A DNA stretch of 10,981 nucleotides from a virus (Duplodnaviria > Heunggongvirae > Uroviricota > Caudoviricetes): the IMG/VR virus record IMGVR_UViG_3300037883_000041; one strand, 5' to 3'. The notes under the pieces were generated by a model. The model saw only the letters and a list, made by a program, of their open reading frames with translations, was not told where the DNA came from and made no database searches. Every line of letters starts with the position of its first letter. The stretch's first letter is position 1. This document shows positions 1 through 7,834 of the stretch, piece by piece. The translations under genes and the position numbers were made by a program.

Positions 1-141
1 AGCTTCAAGTGGCGCAACGACTGCTTCGCCGAAGCAATGGAAACGTACAACGACGGAAGCTCCGAAGAAGCACAAGAGAATCCCGTTGAAGTCGACGGCT
101 TTATCGCACAACCCAACTGGATGCAGTGGTCATCCTCTTAA
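1..141 (+). CDS. 3' end of a gene truncated by the window edge; hypothetical protein (SFKWRNDCFAEAMETYNDGSSEEAQENPVEVDGFIAQPNWMQWSSS*)
   Basis: My own translation: frame 1 is open from base 1 to TAA at 139-141. Codon style matches the downstream genes, and the stop lies 16 nt before the next start. Confidence 0.7.
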   Translation, partial: SFKWRNDCFAEAMETYNDGSSEEAQENPVEVDGFIAQPNWMQWSSS

Positions 142-157
142 ATAACTGGAGTCTGTC

Positions 158-2782
158 TTGAAGAAGAAACTCGGACGATTGAGCCTGGAGTCATTTGACC
201 AGGCCCCGACTGGCAACGTCGAACCCACGGCACAGCCGGTCACCCCGCCGCAACCCCTCGTGCCGACGGCAGGCTACAGCGAGACCCCGTTCAGTGGACA
301 AGAGAACTACGCAGCGGAAGAACACGTCGAAGCTGACGTGAAGGAATTCTGGCAGAAGCTGCTCGGCTACTGGAAGCATTACGGGGATGACGAGATCCTC
401 GAAAGCCTGAACCCTGGTGCGAACTCCGGCGAGATCAGTGCGCTGGAATCCGAATTCCACGTTCGGTTGCCGGAAGCCTTCATCGCGTTGCTCAAGCTGG
501 CCAATGGTCAGACTGAAGACAATCATGGCGGCTGGTGCTTTGGTCATCGCGAGTTCCTCGGTACGCAACGTATCATCGAGAAGACGCGCGAGTGGCAAGG
601 ACTGAACCAGCAAGCCTGGGGCATGTATAGTACCGAGTACGCCGACAAGGAAGTGAAGAAGACCGACTGGAGCGACAAGTGGTTGATCTTCGGCTGGTCG
701 GAAGATCACAAACCGTCGTTCCTCGTGCTCGACTTCGATCCGACGCATGAAGGCAAGATGGGTCAAGTGGTGTCGATCGATCTGCGTGAAGGTCGTCGTG
801 TTGTGGTGGCACCGGACTTCCTCACGTGGTTCAAACGCTTCGTGACGCACCTCACGACGCCGAATCACGGGTCGGTGGCTGCAGAAAGCCACGCTAAGCC
901 CCCTTATCCGCTGCGTACGGCGCTCGAAGCTGATGCGATGGTCGTAGACGTGGATGATCTGGACCAGCTCGCTGTAGGGGCTAATAGCCTGTCTTCGTAT
1001 TTGACGGAGTCAGGCGCTGGGATGGCGTTGGAATCGGAAAAGAACCCGAGCGACATCGCCAAGAGCAAGATGCATCTGCGCTTCAAGAAGCTGAAGGACG
1101 GCTTTGTCGACACCTTCCGCTCGGCCGCAGGCATGGCTTCGAAGTACGAGAAGCAGCTCGACGAGCTGGAAGAAGAGTTGCTCAAGGGTCACACACACGG
1201 CCAGATCAAGGTGAACATGTCGCACCTCTGGCAGCACTTCTCCGATGAGAAGGGTCCGATTACGCACAACCTCATCACCAAGGTGAAGGAAGACGTCGCG
1301 TTCTCGACCTACATCCTCACGGTGTTCTCGGAGCAGGCCTACCAGGAACTGGAAAACCTCTCGCGTGCGCTGCACACGGGCCAGGGTACCGATGACGAGC
1401 AGGCTAAGCGTACCGCACTGGACGTCGAGAAGCTGAAGGGTCCGGCTGAGTACATGGATCAGAAGTGGGTCTGTGCAGCAGGCGAGCAACCGTACCTGTC
1501 AGTCACGGGTCTGTCGGTGCAACAAGGCCGTCATCCGCGTCCGGTCGGCATCGAAGGTGTATCGCTCGATCGTCTGGCTTTGCTGGCTACGCCGTACCAC
1601 TTGCGCGAGTATGGTTCGTTCATGCACGGCCTGAAGAAGATGTTCGTGAGCAACTCGACCAAAGAAGTGCACATGGCGGCTGAAGATCTCGCCAAGCTGA
1701 TCGTGATCGGCCGTGAGTACCTGAGCGCTGCCAAGCTCTACCTGGCGATCTACAACAAGGTCTGGCCGATCTTCCGTCGTCTGGACGACAGCCTCGACAT
1801 GATCTGGGATGACTTCGGTCTGACGGATTACGAGATCAACATCGAGGGCAAAGCTGAAGACGGTAGCGAAGACGTCAACATCCAATGGCAGGAATCGGAG
1901 ACGGGCAACGTCAAGCGTCGTCTGGTGGTGTTCGACCAGCTGATGCAAGTGGTGCGCAACTTCTCCGACGCTGTTCTGCAACCGGGCGTGAACGAACTGG
2001 CGCGTGCATTGCGCGCAGCGAAGTTCCATGGCTATCTGGTGGCCGCTGGGATCAAGGCAGCTGAAGGCAAGGGGCAGCACGCAGGTAACGTGGCGCAGGA
2101 GTTGTTTGGCTTTGGTAAGAAGGAAGAACCGAAGCCTGCTGAATACGCGAGCCCGAAGGACAAGGATATTCCGGCACCGCAATGGGACCCGAATCATCCG
2201 CCCTCGATCGCCGAGTCCTGGAAAGCCTACACCGCGTTTCTGAAGCAGGAAGCACCGGAAGCACTCAAGTATATTCGTCCGCTCAAGTCCGACGAAGAAC
2301 TGAAGAAGCTTGTGGCGCTTGTCAAGGAAAGTACTGGTAAGCAGTTCCCGGCAGACCTCATTGCGCTCTGGAAGCTCACCGATGGTCTCGAAGCATCGAG
2401 CAATCATCCGGGGATGTTTGACCACCTGGACTTCCTCACCGTGCACTGGTCGTACGACGCCTATCTGAGTAACCTGGACATGATGGACGACGACTGGGCG
2501 GATAGTGATTCGAAGGTCGGTCAAGGCATGCAGGGTAAGAAGTGGTGGGAACCCTGGTGGATTCCGTTCACTTCCAATGGCGGTGGCGACTCGATGTGTG
2601 TCGACATCAATCCAGGCAGTGGCGGTAAGGCAGGACAAGTGATCGCTTGGTATCACGATGCAAGTGATCGCCGTGTGGTCGCGCCGAGCGTCGCAGCGTA
2701 CTTCGCGCTGAGTGTTCACCGCCTCATGTATCTTCACGGCCACAAGAAGGACTGGGATTCCAAGAACGGTCCTAAAGAGTAA
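158..2782 (+). CDS. Putative jumbo-phage internal head protein fused to two SMI1/KNR4 (SUKH) domains (SUKH - head core - SUKH), 874 aa
   Basis: TTG start with GGAG at 148-151 (6-nt spacer). aa ~60-232 and ~683-856 carry SMI1/KNR4 signatures. aa ~305-635 align by eye with ORF 2850..4283 (RFKKLKDGFVDTFRS/PFKRWKDRLGDLFKS, AKRTALDVEKL/AKRAALEVEKL, PYLSVTGL/PYLGVTGL, ELARALRAAKF/EANRALRGARF). Confidence 0.85.
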   Translation: MKKKLGRLSLESFDQAPTGNVEPTAQPVTPPQPLVPTAGYSETPFSGQENYAAEEHVEADVKEFWQKLLGYWKHYGDDEILESLNPGANSGEISALESEFHVRLPEAFIALLKLANGQTEDNHGGWCFGHREFLGTQRIIEKTREWQGLNQQAWGMYSTEYADKEVKKTDWSDKWLIFGWSEDHKPSFLVLDFDPTHEGKMGQVVSIDLREGRRVVVAPDFLTWFKRFVTHLTTPNHGSVAAESHAKPPYPLRTALEADAMVVDVDDLDQLAVGANSLSSYLTESGAGMALESEKNPSDIAKSKMHLRFKKLKDGFVDTFRSAAGMASKYEKQLDELEEELLKGHTHGQIKVNMSHLWQHFSDEKGPITHNLITKVKEDVAFSTYILTVFSEQAYQELENLSRALHTGQGTDDEQAKRTALDVEKLKGPAEYMDQKWVCAAGEQPYLSVTGLSVQQGRHPRPVGIEGVSLDRLALLATPYHLREYGSFMHGLKKMFVSNSTKEVHMAAEDLAKLIVIGREYLSAAKLYLAIYNKVWPIFRRLDDSLDMIWDDFGLTDYEINIEGKAEDGSEDVNIQWQESETGNVKRRLVVFDQLMQVVRNFSDAVLQPGVNELARALRAAKFHGYLVAAGIKAAEGKGQHAGNVAQELFGFGKKEEPKPAEYASPKDKDIPAPQWDPNHPPSIAESWKAYTAFLKQEAPEALKYIRPLKSDEELKKLVALVKESTGKQFPADLIALWKLTDGLEASSNHPGMFDHLDFLTVHWSYDAYLSNLDMMDDDWADSDSKVGQGMQGKKWWEPWWIPFTSNGGGDSMCVDINPGSGGKAGQVIAWYHDASDRRVVAPSVAAYFALSVHRLMYLHGHKKDWDSKNGPKE
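335..853 (+). other. SMI1/KNR4 (SUKH superfamily) domain 1 within 158..2782
   Basis: LNPGANSGEISALESEFHVRLPEAFIALLKLANGQ ... KWLIFG ... FLVLDFDPTHEGKMGQVV ... VVAPDFLTWF matches the known SMI1/KNR4 pattern (L-x-P-G-A..E-I..LE......LP..F..L....NG; W..F; D.....G.V; vA.sf..w). Confidence 0.85.
1034..2062 (+). other. Head-protein core domain within 158..2782, paralogous to the mature part of 2850..4283
   Basis: At least five collinear conserved blocks are shared with ORF 2850..4283. DNA similarity is also visible: gctaagcgtaccgcactggacgtcgagaagctg (~1403) vs gcgaagcgtgcagcactggaagtcgaaaagctg (~3594). Confidence 0.85.
2204..2725 (+). other. SMI1/KNR4 (SUKH superfamily) domain 2 within 158..2782
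   Basis: FPADLIALWKLTDG ... WWEPWWIPFTSNGGGDSMCVDINPGSGGKAGQVIAWYHDASDRRVVAPSVAAYF is a close match to the C-terminal half of bacterial SMI1/KNR4 proteins (WIPF..dGgG...cvD..P...G..GQVI...hd). Confidence 0.9.
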
Positions 2783-2849: not shown

Positions 2850-4283
2850 ATGAAAAAGAGTCTGCACCGTATTGCGCTGGAATCCGAGCGCGTTGAAGAA
2901 GTCCGCGTCGAGGAAGAGCGCACGGAAGAGCTGCGCCGCGTCGAATTGTCGGAGCCGGTCACCAACGAACCCGAACTCGCCGAAATCGACCGCGTGGCGG
3001 ATGACGCCGACGGCGAATACGACATGGAGCAACAGGAAGCCGTCGCGATCGAACAGCTGGGTGCTTGGCGCGACCTGCTGGCTCACCAGATCAAGACGAA
3101 GACCGTCTCGATGGAATCGATCGCACTGATCCAGATGGGCGTGCAGCAGATTTACGCGTCGCAAGGCGTGCGCATGCGCACCGTCGCACAAGAAAGCAAC
3201 ATGACGGCAGAAGCCTACGGCACCTACGTCATGGAAAGCATCTTCGGCGCGATCGGCAACAGCATCGTGCTGCCATTCAAGCGTTGGAAGGACCGCCTCG
3301 GCGATCTGTTCAAGTCGCTGCCTGCGCAAGCTGAGAAGTACAAAGGCAAGCTGGAAACGGCTCGTCAAGAACTGCACCAGAAGCCGTTCTCGGGCGCTGC
3401 TGAAATCAACATGCACGAACTGTGGGGCTTCTTCACCACCGGCGAAGGTCAAGCTGTCAAGACACTCGCCGTCCTGCAGAAAGACTTGGCAATGGACAAG
3501 TACGTGCTGGTCGACTACCCGCAACAACTGGGCAAGCTGGTCGCCTCGCTCGCTGGCATCGTGGGCCACGGTGACTTCAACTCGCCGGAAGGCGCGAAGC
3601 GTGCAGCACTGGAAGTCGAAAAGCTGCAGCACCCGGTCGACATGTTCAACCAACAGTTCATCTCGCACGGCAAGAAGCCGTACCTGGGTGTGACGGGTCT
3701 GGACATCAAGGTCGGCGCGAAGCGCAAGGTGCTGTCGATCGACGGTCAAGCGTTCACGAAGCTCGCTGAACTGGCGTCGGTCAAGCGTGTCGACGAATCG
3801 AGCTCGTTCGGTCACAACTTCCTGAACGCGGCCGGTAAGGTCGGCGGCAAGGTGCTCGGCAATGCCGTGAACACCGCCTCGATCGTGCTGTCGAAGAACG
3901 CGAAGATGACCTCGCAAGAACTCGACAAGCTGATCACGTTCGGCGAAGAGTACGTCAACAACGTCGACGCGTACCTGAAGAACAGCCAGCAACTCTGGAA
4001 CAGCCTGCAACAACTGGACCAAGCCATCGAGAAGCATTCGCATGGCAAGCTGCAAGGCGAAGCTGCGGCAGTGTTCATGCAGATCGCTCAGTTCGCGGAC
4101 GTGTGCGTGCAAGCTGCGGGCAACCCGGCTATCCGTGAAGCGAACCGTGCGCTGCGTGGTGCTCGCTTCGTGGCCTACATGGCTCGTCGTGGTATCTTCC
4201 ACGGCAAGAACAGCGGCCAAAGCAACCAAGAAGCACCGGCAGCTCCCGCTGGTGAAGAAGGTGGCGAAGCAGCAGCTGCGTAA
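2850..4283 (+). CDS. Putative phiKZ-like internal head (ejection) protein with cleavable acidic propeptide, 477 aa
   Basis: Very Glu-rich N-terminal region with ALE(9-11), SME(87-89) and AQE(113-115) motifs matching the phiKZ-type prohead protease consensus (S/A/G)-X-E, followed by a helical core. Paralog of the middle of 158..2782. Confidence 0.75.
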   Translation: MKKSLHRIALESERVEEVRVEEERTEELRRVELSEPVTNEPELAEIDRVADDADGEYDMEQQEAVAIEQLGAWRDLLAHQIKTKTVSMESIALIQMGVQQIYASQGVRMRTVAQESNMTAEAYGTYVMESIFGAIGNSIVLPFKRWKDRLGDLFKSLPAQAEKYKGKLETARQELHQKPFSGAAEINMHELWGFFTTGEGQAVKTLAVLQKDLAMDKYVLVDYPQQLGKLVASLAGIVGHGDFNSPEGAKRAALEVEKLQHPVDMFNQQFISHGKKPYLGVTGLDIKVGAKRKVLSIDGQAFTKLAELASVKRVDESSSFGHNFLNAAGKVGGKVLGNAVNTASIVLSKNAKMTSQELDKLITFGEEYVNNVDAYLKNSQQLWNSLQQLDQAIEKHSHGKLQGEAAAVFMQIAQFADVCVQAAGNPAIREANRALRGARFVAYMARRGIFHGKNSGQSNQEAPAAPAGEEGGEAAAA

Positions 4284-4387: not shown

Positions 4388-5131
4388 ATGAGCCAAGCAG
4401 AACAGTTGACACAGTGGCTCGAGACTGTGTCCGAGAAAGTCCGCAAGAATGTGACGGTCGTAACGCCTGAAGAAGTGGGTCAGGATTACTTCCTCCACAT
4501 GAGCACGGACACGGGAATCAAGAAGTTCATCCCGCACATCGGGCGGCGCCAGGCTTATAGCGAGGACCGTTCGGTACCGCGCATTACTGTGGCCCCGACC
4601 TTGCTGGGATGCTTCATTGGTTACGCGAAGAGTGCGTACGATTTCCAAAACTTGCCTTCGGTAAAGAAAGCCGACGAGAAGGGTTACAAGGGCGGCTGGA
4701 AGATTTACGCCCTGCCCTTTCAAGCGGCTCTGAAACCGACGGCTCGCATGGTGTATGACTCACGGGTCAGTGACGAGCACTGGCTGGTGTCGTACAACCG
4801 GGAAACGAATGAGTACATCCCGGAAACCGCAGGCAAAATGTTCTTCCGTTCCATCCGACTCGTCTCTCGTGCAGGTAACATGCCGGAAGGCGAGATGGAG
4901 CTGTACGCGGAGATCACCAAGCCAGGTGGTGTACGCTTTAGCAAGAACATTCGATTGGATGTGGGCTATCATCGTATCGTGGGGCCCCTTCAGGAACACG
5001 TGAAGGCCTGGACCGATGATAAGGGCTATGTGTCCACACCGATCGATAAGGCTGAGTACTTCTCGGCCAAGAACGCGTCGGCTGACTTGCTCAGCCTGAC
5101 ATCTGGCATCCCTCCCCATCTTCAGTGGTAA
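4388..5131 (+). CDS. Uncharacterised phage protein, possibly ADP-ribosyltransferase-like fold, 247 aa
   Basis: Motif order FLHMST (H37) ... EDRSVPRITVAPTLLGCFIGY ... WKIYALP ... YDSRVSDEHW (E130) resembles the strand/helix order of H-type ART domains. No clear Shine-Dalgarno. The fold is inferred from motif spacing only. Confidence 0.5.
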   Translation: MSQAEQLTQWLETVSEKVRKNVTVVTPEEVGQDYFLHMSTDTGIKKFIPHIGRRQAYSEDRSVPRITVAPTLLGCFIGYAKSAYDFQNLPSVKKADEKGYKGGWKIYALPFQAALKPTARMVYDSRVSDEHWLVSYNRETNEYIPETAGKMFFRSIRLVSRAGNMPEGEMELYAEITKPGGVRFSKNIRLDVGYHRIVGPLQEHVKAWTDDKGYVSTPIDKAEYFSAKNASADLLSLTSGIPPHLQW

Positions 5132-5135
5132 GAAC

Positions 5136-6443
5136 ATGAGATCTTTTAACTGGCGTAGTGCCCTCCAAGGAAGCAATGCTGTCGAAGAATTCCCGCCTCC
5201 TGGCGGTGGCACCTGGAGTCAGACCCAGGCCGAAATCGACGCGGCGAAGAATCGACCGACCGAAGACCAGGATCTCGAAGACACCGCCAAGCCGACCAAG
5301 CAGGCCGGGCAGATCGACGGCGACACTACGACACTCTCGGGTCAAGCCAAGCCTGGTCAGAACCCGGTGCCGGACAAGGAAGACACCCGCGGTGGTGGCG
5401 AGCCGAAGATCAACAGTGCGCCGGTGGATCTGGCCGATGTGGTGCTGACCAACCAGGACCGTCGTGCCTATCAGCCGCTCGTCTCGGACGCAGCCAGCAA
5501 GGACGCGGTCAATGAGCAGAACATCGCTCAGGAGTCAGGTCTCTTCGAGCGCATCAAGGATTCCTTCCAGCATCAGGAAAAGAGCATCCTGGAAGAACGT
5601 GCTGAGGCGAGAGAAAACCTGTCGCGTATCGAAGGCATGAAGACCAAGCTGCAAACGCGGCAAGGTGACGTGCATGAAAAGTCCGATACGATCCGGCTGT
5701 CGGCGTACGCCACGTGGCTGGCGATCGATGGCAAGGTGATGGACACCGAAGCAGATCTCATGCGTGAGCTGGCTCGTCTGCAAGAGTTCAGCCGCTGGTT
5801 CACTTCATCGTACGCCAAGTCGCTCTTTGACACCTACGAGTACATGGCGACGAAGGTGCTCAAGCTCGGTGAATCGAACCTGCCTGAGGCGAAAGCCAAC
5901 CTCGCCAAAGTCTTCGAGATCTACAAGCCCGAAGGCATGGAGAAGTACCTGACCGAAAAGAAGACGGTCGAGGACAAGGGGCAATCGTACACCGACATGG
6001 AATCGCCGATGTTCATGGGTTCCTGGCGAGTCGTAGCCTACGAGCAAGTGAAGACCAATCTGGCCCAAGGTCACGAGCTTACCTTCCGCTGGGAGAAGGC
6101 CAATGACAAGGTCAAGAAGGCTGAGCTGAAGCCCCTCTCCAAGCAGGCCATGCTCAAGGTCGTGGGTCAGCTGGAAGCCATCTCGAACGTCATGGCAGCG
6201 TTCAGTGCAGAGGCTGAGTTCAAGAAGGCCGTGCGTTTTTACGATGCACTCGACGAATTCGCCTACCGCTATCGCTACTTCAAGCAACTCCCCCGTGAAG
6301 AGCAAGCCATGGTTCAGTCGATCTACCAGATTTGCAACATGGTTGCCGAAGGCGTGCGGATGTGGTTTGCTGAGCGCGCCGTGAACCATACCGTCAAAGC
6401 AACGTTGCTGTACGTCGAGAAATCGATGCGCCGCATCAAGTAA
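5136..6443 (+). CDS. Putative phiKZ-like internal head protein with long disordered propeptide, 435 aa
   Basis: A ~130-aa Pro/Gly/Thr/Asp-rich N-terminus ends in AQE(131-133)|SGLFERIKDSF, followed by a helical, Lys/Glu-rich body. Starts 4 nt after the upstream stop. Confidence 0.65.
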   Translation: MRSFNWRSALQGSNAVEEFPPPGGGTWSQTQAEIDAAKNRPTEDQDLEDTAKPTKQAGQIDGDTTTLSGQAKPGQNPVPDKEDTRGGGEPKINSAPVDLADVVLTNQDRRAYQPLVSDAASKDAVNEQNIAQESGLFERIKDSFQHQEKSILEERAEARENLSRIEGMKTKLQTRQGDVHEKSDTIRLSAYATWLAIDGKVMDTEADLMRELARLQEFSRWFTSSYAKSLFDTYEYMATKVLKLGESNLPEAKANLAKVFEIYKPEGMEKYLTEKKTVEDKGQSYTDMESPMFMGSWRVVAYEQVKTNLAQGHELTFRWEKANDKVKKAELKPLSKQAMLKVVGQLEAISNVMAAFSAEAEFKKAVRFYDALDEFAYRYRYFKQLPREEQAMVQSIYQICNMVAEGVRMWFAERAVNHTVKATLLYVEKSMRRIK

Positions 6444-6454
6444 AGGAGTTACCC

Positions 6455-7834
6455 GTGGAAGAAGAAGTCATCGAAGCAACGGTGGAAACACCGGAAGTGC
6501 CGACCGAAACGGTGCTCCTGACCGAAGACGTCGAATGCACGCGCATGAACCGTCAGCTGGAGCGTCTGGAAAGCCTGCGTGGTCAACTGGTCGAGAACAA
6601 GCAACTCACCAGTGAAGTCGCGCTGGAGCATCAGGCTTTGACCGGCAGTGATTCACTGGTGGATGCGTACTTCAGTCCGGCTGCCAAGCAGAAGAAGTAC
6701 CAGATCGCCTCGGAAGGCCTTCTGCAGACCACCCAGACGCTACTCAAAAAGGCGAAGGACCTGCTCTGGAACATGATCGTCAAGGTCTTCAACTGGTTCC
6801 AGAAGCTCTTCATGGACAAGAAGCCGCTGACCGAAGCTGCTGTCGAAGCCGAGCATGCCAAGTTCAAGGAGTACGTGGGTCCGGTCGAACGGGCTGAACG
6901 GGTACCGAGTTCCCGGACAGCGATCATCGCAGCCGTGCGTGAAGCGGGTCTGGACGACAAGTACGTCGGTCAGTTGACGCCCGAGGAAATGGACATCTAC
7001 AACGAAGGTCGTTTCCATCAGGCAATGCAGCGGGTGATTCCGACGCTCAAGGGCTTTGACGTGTACGACGTCGTGGTTGCGCTGGAGAACTGGCACAAGA
7101 AGGCCTTGAAGGATGCTGAGATCTTCGATAGCGAGAATGGTCAGTTGGATGACGAGGTGATCGAACGCAAGCTCGAGATCTGGAAGAAGGACACCATGCG
7201 GGCGTTGGAGTCCGCTACCCAGATGTCGAAGTCGGTCATGGAAGTGCGTCTGCAGGCCTACCAGCTGGCTGTGGAAGAGCGTCGTAAGCTCAAGGTCGAT
7301 CCGCATTTCCATCTGGGCACGGATCTCTCCGGCATCATGCATCGTGGTCTGCGCATCTTCGATCAATCCGGCTACAAGCAAGTTGGCGACGGCATGCGTG
7401 ACGTCCATACAGGTCTCACCAAGACCGTGAAGCAATTGCAGACGTTGCGTCAGAACGCCGAGGTCGAATTGCAACAGATGCAGATGGGCGGCAGCAACAG
7501 CGTCATGAGTGCGCCGGGTGCGCGCAAGCCTGCAGCTGAGTTTGTTGAAGCGACGTTCATGAAGGAAGTGAACCGCATCATCTCGACGTTGCATCAATGC
7601 GTCCAGTCGGTGCAGTTGCTCAACAACTACTTCTCCTTCGTGGTGTCGTCCACACGTACAATCCTCAAGTACGTGCAGGAAACGGCCGTAGAGGCGATGA
7701 AGTACGGCGGTGATGTCAAGAGCTTGAACGAAGTCGCGCGCCGCGCTGAGGCCGGTGCAATCCAGCCTACAGAGACCGACCTCCAGAACAACCTGGGATC
7801 GAACTACGATACCAAGCTGGGTGACGGTAGCTAA
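6455..7834 (+). CDS. Putative phiKZ-like internal head protein, 459 aa
   Basis: GTG start with AAGGAG at 6443-6448. The acidic N-terminus has ALE(56-58) and ASE(85-87)|GLLQTTQTLLKKAKDLLWNMIVKVFNWFQKLF, the X-X-E|G-then-amphipathic-helix layout I associate with phiKZ internal head proteins. Confidence 0.75.
   Translation: MEEEVIEATVETPEVPTETVLLTEDVECTRMNRQLERLESLRGQLVENKQLTSEVALEHQALTGSDSLVDAYFSPAAKQKKYQIASEGLLQTTQTLLKKAKDLLWNMIVKVFNWFQKLFMDKKPLTEAAVEAEHAKFKEYVGPVERAERVPSSRTAIIAAVREAGLDDKYVGQLTPEEMDIYNEGRFHQAMQRVIPTLKGFDVYDVVVALENWHKKALKDAEIFDSENGQLDDEVIERKLEIWKKDTMRALESATQMSKSVMEVRLQAYQLAVEERRKLKVDPHFHLGTDLSGIMHRGLRIFDQSGYKQVGDGMRDVHTGLTKTVKQLQTLRQNAEVELQQMQMGGSNSVMSAPGARKPAAEFVEATFMKEVNRIISTLHQCVQSVQLLNNYFSFVVSSTRTILKYVQETAVEAMKYGGDVKSLNEVARRAEAGAIQPTETDLQNNLGSNYDTKLGDGS

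Follow-up and report, generated by a model that had tools for sequence, protein, structure and literature searches.

The window analysed here, the whole 10,981-nt stretch of the Caudoviricetes record IMGVR_UViG_3300037883_000041, encodes an 874-amino-acid (aa) protein, P0001, in which two SUKH-1 domains flank a helical core that profile comparisons place on a divergent branch of the phiKZ internal-head-protein superfamily. The module boundaries of P0001 carry conserved motifs resembling the cleavage sites of the phiKZ head protease, and its SUKH modules, unlike its core, differ strongly between close relatives. With slightly more hesitation than conviction, we propose that an internal head protein of a nucleus-forming jumbo phage has been turned into a SUKH-1 carrier whose modules, once freed, would be injected and would neutralise toxin-type proteins.

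A head-protein core between two SUKH-1 modules

At the DNA level the window is 81.6% identical to Burkholderia phage FLC9, a jumbo phage of B. glumae with a genome of 321.8 kb; every FLC9 gene that the match covers carries the annotation hypothetical, and gp96 is the ortholog of P0001 (72% aa identity). A first-pass annotation of the same sequence had supposed a phiKZ-like context, and the nearest relative bears this out: FLC9 is a chimallivirus that has, besides a capsid protein of the phiKZ type, homologs of chimallin (8e-29) and of gp175, the enzyme that matures the phiKZ head by proteolysis (37% identity, 8e-43; FLC9 record positions 32369-33145). Only seven proteins of the P0001 type were found among 5.8 billion clusters, and apart from the FLC9 protein they are encoded on metagenomic contigs, which reach 327 kb; the window DNA itself is present in soil metagenomes.

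P0001 is the product of an uninterrupted open reading frame (ORF) whose TTG start codon has GGAG 8 nt before it and lies 16 nt past the preceding gene's stop; orthologs with an initial ATG at the matching motif support this start assignment. The single-ORF SUKH-core-SUKH layout had been drawn correctly in the first-pass annotation, with coordinates right to about 10 residues, and is set out below (arrows mark putative cuts).

158..2782 (+): whole gene, an internal-head-protein-like polyprotein with two SUKH-1 modules (ORF, Pfam, BLASTP, orthologs)
158..190 (+): aa 1-11, putative short N-terminal targeting/cleavage peptide, ending L-S-L-E↓S (E11 and S12 invariant, 7 orthologs)
191..319 (+): aa 12-54, conserved segment predicted to be disordered, ending Y-A-A-E↓ (conservation; predicted local distance difference test, pLDDT)
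320..886 (+): aa 55-243, SUKH-1 module 1 (SUKH1), a swappable cassette ending A-A-E↓S (PF09346, 62.2 bits; Atlas template-modelling (TM) score 0.82)
887..1033 (+): aa 244-292, linker with invariant A-L-E↓A (E257, nt 926-928) and A-L-E↓S (E292, nt 1031-1033) (orthologs; pLDDT < 50)
1034..2101 (+): aa 293-648, helical core, ending V-A-Q-E↓L (E648, nt 2099-2101) (BLASTP; hidden Markov model, HMM; hhalign; AlphaFold2, AF2)
2102..2203 (+): aa 649-682, linker after V-A-Q-E↓L-F-G-F-G-K-K, recombination boundary of the SUKH2 cassette (orthologs, soil-strain contigs)
2204..2779 (+): aa 683-874, SUKH-1 module 2 (SUKH2), a swappable cassette (PF09346, 63.3 bits; Foldseek, 3e-7)

Both terminal domains, which had been called SUKH from sequence reading, are true SUKH-1 domains. 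A Pfam scan of the whole protein matched PF09346 (SMI1_KNR4, SUKH-1) in two stretches at E 4.7e-34, and each domain passes the curated gathering cut-off of 25.4 bits when submitted alone (aa 87-226, 62.2 bits; aa 722-850, 63.3 bits). The fold agrees: in a Foldseek search of the full-length AF2 model against the PDB the top matches were all SUKH proteins, namely Knr4 (3e-7), FBXO3, BF1740, YobK, 2ICG and Syd, and against SMI1/KNR4 clusters the ESM Atlas model of aa 61-238 reached a TM score of 0.82. The two domains share 24% identity, and the closest solved sequence to SUKH2 is the Knr4 core (8aj2, E 1e-4). The full-length model as a whole is poor (overall pLDDT 57), with both SUKH domains at 70-90 and the linkers (residues 1-55, 235-302 and 637-660) below 50.

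Over aa 307-640 the core shares 27% identity with the protein encoded by the next ORF (2850..4283; BLASTP, E 7e-34), as expected from the paralogy with the adjacent gene that had been claimed for it. The further claim of membership in the phiKZ internal head proteins stands on profile-profile and transitive evidence but not on the Pfam family itself: PF12699 (phiKZ_IP) has a curated cut-off of 27 bits, the whole protein reaches 13.8 bits and the core alone 15.6 bits, and direct PF12699 membership of the core was rejected on these scores. A six-frame search of FLC9 likewise gave no PF12699 match at gp96, and a narrow core profile found no match in phiKZ, the kinship being visible only with a broad family profile. 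A profile built from the core and its paralogs and searched against 1.84 billion representatives yielded 126 clusters, most of 430-520 aa, in which the core is C-terminal and preceded by a region of 100-160 residues. Three family members (P0072, P0090 and P0104) pass PF12699 over nearly the full profile, and the family core HMM matches FLC9 gp333, a true PF12699 protein, at 2.3e-9 and colinearly. When the family, stripped of its PF12699-positive members, was aligned by hhalign with phiKZ gp92-96 and FLC9 gp332-334, the match (95.5% probability, E 1.5e-8) extended over 290 columns and began at a cleavage-type motif.

Structure prediction gave a confident model for the core (aa 286-655, from 86 family sequences; pLDDT 89.8, predicted TM score 0.88), a long helical bundle with small beta inserts. 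Against BFVD, this model had 43 matches at E <= 0.001, including proteins annotated 'virion structural protein' or 'internal head protein', and the named rows came almost entirely from phiKZ-like phages (201phi2-1, Psa21, Noxifer, Ea35-70 and RP12). Foldseek matched no solved structure to the core, and no helix-rich domain structure of the gp92-97 type turned up. In exhaustive structural alignment the best PDB entry was phiKZ gp86 (8Y6V, 8y6v_G) with Z 10.4 over 230 residues and a root-mean-square deviation of 4.6, followed by a next best of 7.8, values of a size that may, according to the tool's own warning, be generic for helical bundles; comparison of the core with gp86 found no sequence relation. 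Likeness of the core to helical toxins of the ClyA, Hbl and IpaD types was considered and dismissed as not significant (Foldseek probability <= 0.35). These comparisons indicate that the core is a divergent branch of the phiKZ internal-head-protein superfamily, and that P0001 is very probably one of its head proteins.

On the opposite strand, long ORFs of 233, 159 and 414 aa run across the gene (window 191-2743, -), and the 57% G+C content is the simplest explanation for them; homology and the ratio of nonsynonymous to synonymous substitution rates (dN/dS; 0.21 overall against FLC9 gp96) support the + strand frame as the real coding frame.

Putative release sites and exchange of SUKH cassettes

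P0001 begins M-K-K-K-L-G-R-L-S-L-E↓S and its cargo-less paralog, encoded by the next ORF, M-K-K-S-L-H-R-I-A-L-E↓S; phiKZ gp92-97 open likewise, for example gp93 with ...K-L-S-L-E↓S, which is cut between E13 and S14 according to a capsid paper citing a proteolysis study (PMC11297242). Family-wide, [SAG]-x-E occurs within the first 20 aa of 94 of the 121 complete N-termini, where shuffled sequences predict 55, and the Glu is mostly at positions 9-14. The Glu directly before the core, E292 in P0001, is kept in 121 of the 126 family members with the logo [LVI]-[ASV]-[LM]-E↓[GSA], which fits the preferences measured for the SPN3US protease (A-x-E motif, Val at P4 and Ser at P1'; PMC10052503). Among the closer relatives, the motifs at E11, E54, E257, E292 and E648 are invariant in seven orthologs and all fall in the low-confidence linkers at module boundaries. 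The E243 site occurs in exactly the six proteins that have SUKH1 and is missing from P0007 and P0008, both of which lack that module; distant SUKH-bearing relatives likewise have a site directly ahead of the SUKH domain, and V-A-Q-E-L-F-G-F-G-K-K is kept in all orthologs and in the distant P0022. Heads of the phiKZ type package many proteins, which gp175 processes at S/A/G-x-E (PMC13282480, PMC11297242, PMC9026906). The conserved [S/A/G]-x-E motifs at every module boundary of P0001 (E11, E54, E243, E257, E292 and E648) look like putative release sites, and we consider it probable that the protein is packaged and processed at them.

Residues 12-54 have a pLDDT below 35, indicating disorder, yet are the best-conserved part of the protein (94% identity to FLC9, dN/dS 0.07), with many invariant columns. 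In phiKZ gp93 the stretch at the corresponding position, residues 14-84, lines the capsid on its inner side (PMC11297242), and by that analogy residues 12-54 are a candidate capsid- or core-binding arm.

Conservation differs sharply between the parts of the protein. Identity to FLC9 is 94% in aa 1-54, 92% in the core, 35% in SUKH1 and 72% in SUKH2; in the same order, dN/dS is 0.07, 0.08, 0.42 and 0.135 and dS is 0.43, 0.69, 1.7 and 1.7, both SUKH1 values being rough owing to saturation. The raised dS in the SUKH modules points to recombinational replacement, not fast change alone. The flanks of SUKH1 are 86-94% identical to FLC9. Compared with the other orthologs, the window's SUKH1 is ~30% identical, while the SUKH1 modules of P0002, P0004 and P0005 are 53-58% alike across core groups; P0005 and P0007 share a SUKH2 that is 81% alike on cores of merely 58%, and the SUKH2 of P0004 is only 22-29% identical to all others. 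The pairwise identity matrices of module and core are incongruent, and the SUKH cassettes are exchanged between phages with near-identical cores. Modules also vary in number: P0007 and P0008 have no SUKH1, and P0004 probably has two C-terminal SUKH domains, making three modules in all.

Soil strains place a boundary of such exchange within the gene. Contigs from two further soil metagenomes are 95-97% identical over nt 1-2100, the match ending at nt 2091 and nt 2128; these breakpoints fall just past the E648 motif, and one contig continues with unrelated sequence from nt 2128. No contig at least 90% alike over most of the SUKH2 region was seen in samples X3 and X4, and in X3 a diverged sequence of the same length replaces nt 2590-2778.

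A SUKH1 only 35% identical to FLC9 between flanks of ~90% raised the worry that the ORF might be an assembly chimera, the possibility that the first-pass annotation had itself named as fatal to its reading. The ORF is not chimeric: one contig from an independent soil metagenome (X2) is identical over nt 341-2760, across both the SUKH1-core and core-SUKH2 junctions, and a 96%-identical contig from X3 spans nt 126-556, across the junction ahead of SUKH1. The layout is, moreover, common to the FLC9 isolate genome and five other assemblies.

The fusion extends beyond the window and FLC9. P0085 (814 aa), encoded on a 327-kb contig at the same locus behind the helicase gene, has a core of ~20% identity, a C-terminal SUKH domain and a V-A-L-E site at 685-688; P0022 (651 aa) combines a paralog-like core, the V-A-Q-E-L-F-G-F-G-K-K linker and a SUKH domain. 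The architecture that the first-pass annotation suggested seeking in chimalliviruses is thus present in FLC9 gp96, with the fusion also in these two distant proteins, and the fusion is older than the window/FLC9 clade. Distant relatives of ~325 kb carry it at the matching locus, and the architecture is found in at least two further branches of the family. In a subfamily sharing the N-terminus M-D-L-N-T-L-I-H-K-A-A..., C-terminal extensions range from 0 to 346 residues, from essentially none in P0075 to 92-346 residues in P0066, P0072, P0078, P0090 and P0093. No Pfam domain was found in the extensions (P0066, P0072, P0090 and P0093 match only PF12699, on the core, and P0078 matches nothing), the SUKH HMM built here did not match them and the Atlas gave no lead for P0066; they may be other cargo domains, the sister protein P0085 having SUKH in that place.

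The locus and its neighbours

The genes next to P0001 in the window are the following.

1..141 (+): 3' end (last 46 codons) of an SNF2-type helicase gene, TAA at 139-141 (ortholog of FLC9 gp95 and phiKZ gp203)
2850..4283 (+): cargo-less paralog, 477 aa, with N-terminal …R-I-A-L-E↓S, an acidic propeptide and the shared core (BLASTP, motif)
4388..7834 (+): three co-oriented downstream genes, synteny kept in relatives, the first encoding a 247-aa phrog_5043 protein (family scans)

In FLC9 and in three metagenomic relatives alike, the gene for the major capsid protein of phiKZ type, ~5 kb upstream, is followed in order by a ~190-aa gene and the genes for a divergent DnaB, the SNF2 helicase and the SUKH protein, and then by the downstream genes. 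FLC9 gp95 has ResIII, SNF2 and Helicase_C domains and matches phiKZ gp203, a helicase annotated as a virion structural protein, at E 2.3e-139 and 37% identity; this possibly packaged helicase (window 1-141; L001:6004-8052) adjoins the SUKH carrier and is co-oriented with it in all relatives examined. In one 327-kb relative (L003:12821-13429), a gene for a 202-aa 2OG-Fe(II) oxygenase takes the place of the cargo-less paralog.

A head-protein nature of the three downstream genes is only suggested. The second encodes a 435-aa protein (window 5136-6443, +) without a family match, with A-V-E at aa 15-17 (A-L-E in the FLC9 ortholog), and may be another packaged protein. The third encodes a 459-aa protein (window 6455-7834, +; phrog_32764) that matches PF12699 weakly and in its N-terminal part only (E 0.021), the FLC9 ortholog matching at 8.8e-5 in the six-frame search; it may represent one more, diverged, internal head protein. 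FLC9 has three true PF12699 genes elsewhere in its genome, none with a PF09346 match, and the two domains of gp96 are the sole PF09346 matches in that genome.

Neither Pfam nor NCBIfam detected a toxin or nuclease domain in any ORF of the window, in keeping with the first-pass remark that no cognate toxin is visible there. The syntenic neighbours in the relatives are head and helicase genes, and a linkage of the SUKH gene to a toxin gene or cassette was not found.

Delivery, rival readings and known systems

In the mechanism that we favour, the N-terminal peptide and aa 12-54 would bring the precursor into the prohead, where a gp175-like protease would cut the boundary motifs, so that SUKH1 (~21 kDa), the core (~40 kDa) and SUKH2 (~25 kDa) would become separate pieces within the capsid. 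The freed pieces would exit with the DNA at infection, SUKH2 most securely, and the SUKH pieces would bind and neutralise toxin-type proteins of the host or of competitors ahead of phage gene expression; candidate targets are effectors of abortive infection as well as domains of polymorphic toxins (RNase, nuclease or other), and cassette turnover would mirror an arms race with variable targets. Injection has been reported for phiKZ head proteins, those of the inner body included (PMC13282480, PMC11297242, PMC9026906), and SUKH domains are known as immunity proteins of toxin systems and as versatile protein binders (PMC3113570). The protease motifs flanking each module and the exchange between close relatives, neither of which the first-pass annotation had noted, strengthen the idea of a conflict interface. 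That delivered SUKH modules inhibit host or competitor effectors is nonetheless the step about which we are more doubtful than confident. The first-pass interpretation was similar and is supported in part, by the true SUKH-1 domains, the superfamily core, the chimallivirus relative and the N-terminal motif; the architecture is not unique to this phage.

We caution that several points weigh against this proposal. Packaging, cleavage and ejection of P0001 and gp96 are steps that we infer, and the core falls below the PF12699 cut-off. The only solved lookalike of the core, phiKZ gp86, is fixed on the inner face of the capsid vertex, so the core could stay in the capsid. The [SAG]-x-E motif is short, and P0001 holds 21 copies, mostly unconserved. 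Propeptides of phiKZ and SPN3US proteins mostly leave the head at maturation (PMC10052503), and SUKH1, by analogy in the propeptide position, is less certain to be delivered than SUKH2. Word-based searches with each SUKH domain alone found no close bacterial relative from which a target could be read, and they leave a recent capture of SUKH from a host genome, which we had also considered, unsupported. SUKH domains act outside toxin immunity too, as in Syd with SecY, Knr4 and FBXO3 (PMC3113570). Finally, the DNA of nucleus-forming phages is already shielded from nucleases (PMC13282480), which weakens the anti-nuclease version of the idea; given that shielding, RNA-targeting or other non-DNA effectors would, speculatively, be likelier targets than DNases.

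An alternative interpretation is that the SUKH modules serve the phage's own side, binding a phage-encoded partner in assembly or in the capsid, keeping a co-packaged enzyme or toxin, or the protease, inactive in the producing cell, or acting as adaptors that bring other cargo into the head, and do not inhibit host proteins. SUKH immunity proteins usually pair with a toxin from their own genome (PMC3113570), phiKZ-like heads package many enzymes (PMC13282480), the gene sits among head-associated genes, and SUKH1 lies where a propeptide would be active in assembly and then mostly removed (PMC10052503). We consider this improbable, however, because a conserved partner should constrain the modules, yet they are swapped, lost or multiplied on near-identical cores with near-identical neighbours; the absence of toxin or nuclease domains from the window ORFs, and of PF09346 matches in FLC9 beyond those of gp96, also argues against it. 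The same turnover bears on a second alternative, that delivered modules are general adaptors for host takeover, which would engage a host hub, the membrane or a translation component, much as Syd engages SecY, Knr4 serves as a hub and US22 proteins of herpesviruses bind host factors, and so set up the early vesicle or redirect physiology: with a conserved host target, modules would not be expected to be replaced and lost as rapidly as observed. In support of such adaptors, the SUKH fold provides a versatile protein-binding cleft with uses outside immunity (PMC3113570), nucleus-forming phages need early factors before transcription starts (PMC13282480), the window lacks a toxin context, and the nearest solved relatives of SUKH2 in both sequence and fold are Knr4 and FBXO3 instead of bacterial immunity proteins; the Knr4 similarity is low (14-17% identity), however, and may merely reflect a common SUKH-1 subgroup. 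We regard general adaptors as unlikely.

It is also conceivable, but very unlikely, that the SUKH parts never reach a new host, P0001 being a structural or cementing protein of the inner wall or an unpackaged late protein of the cytoplasm. The solved structure most like the core, gp86, is that of a capsid protein fixed at the vertex, and in phiKZ the N-terminal portions of gp93 and gp162 remain at the capsid wall (PMC11297242). Sequence-level homology, however, is to the gp92-97 group and not to gp86, and the Z score to gp86 is possibly generic for a long helical bundle; protease motifs at the boundaries make sense only with module release, and the module turnover would be unusual for a purely structural part.

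If delivery and inhibition are nevertheless accepted, P0001 could be generalised as 'polymorphic immunity', a mirror of polymorphic toxins in which a constant head-protein trunk carries exchangeable SUKH antidotes that are freed by protease and injected. We think this rather unlikely, but if it were true, the cell would be armed before transcription against abortive-infection effectors or the toxins of neighbours, and the cassette would help to set which strains are permissive. More broadly, SUKH cassettes would be a likely determinant of host range at the strain level, and if their targets are host defence effectors, they would be a new class of virion-delivered anti-defence factor. The post-injection role of phiKZ-type internal head proteins is largely obscure despite their large mass per virion; SUKH, a fold for tight binding and neutralisation of toxins, offers a concrete hypothesis for the function of a jumbo-phage ejection protein that is testable in FLC9 gp96.

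Packaged anti-host proteins and SUKH immunity are each known; new is their combination, with its putative release sites and cassette exchange. Our literature search found no description of SUKH/SMI1 domains on phage head proteins, and a comparative paper on jumbo phages does not mention SUKH (PMC7824862). The closest known proteins are phiKZ gp92-gp97 (PF12699) and their homologs in 201phi2-1 and SPN3US, which share with P0001 the helix-rich core superfamily, the S-L-E↓ peptide, a propeptide bounded by [S/A/G]-x-E and a cluster of paralogs near head genes; a gp175-type protease is encoded by the closest relative, FLC9. P0001 differs in scoring below the PF12699 cut-off and in its two SUKH-1 domains, an architecture for which the narrow core profile gave no match in phiKZ, SUKH1 replacing most of the acidic propeptide and SUKH2 being appended after the core. 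Phages of the phiKZ-like jumbo group are known as lytic.

Other parallels concern the cargo. Like bacterial SUKH-1 immunity proteins such as B. subtilis YobK (2PRV), the domains of P0001 belong to the same Pfam family and fold, occur as divergent copies side by side and undergo cassette exchange (PMC3113570); unlike them, they are fused into a phage protein of structural type and have no adjacent toxin gene. MuF polymorphic toxins (Jamet et al. 2017, PMC5576092) similarly combine a head-associated trunk, variable conflict modules and proposed delivery by the virion, but what varies in MuF systems is the toxin, immunity being encoded by a gene of its own, and the phages are temperate ones of Firmicutes, whereas P0001 has an immunity-type module and no toxin, in a phiKZ-like jumbo phage. 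The herpesvirus US22 family also places two SUKH domains in one viral polypeptide (PMC3113570), but these belong to the SUKH-5 group, in an animal virus and in an unrelated architecture, whereas the SUKH-1 domains of P0001 are split by a head-protein core.

The functional analogy is clearest with phage T4. No T4 internal protein was among the Pfam or fold-search matches of P0001, no comparison aimed at T4 IPI having been made, and the likeness is one of function only. T4 IPI* is packaged by means of a short N-terminal peptide, which is cleaved off by the prohead protease, and after injection along with the DNA it inhibits a restriction enzyme of the host; the T4 internal protein (IP) loci vary among relatives, and IPIII with foreign proteins fused behind it allows their packaging and delivery (PMC9026906). 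In contrast to IPI* and IPIII, P0001 combines SUKH cargo with a large helical carrier and several putative internal release sites. Targeting peptide, carrier and cargo are the elements that T4 researchers joined by hand, and P0001 suggests that nature already combines them in this way, which is relevant to the engineering of phages for protein delivery.

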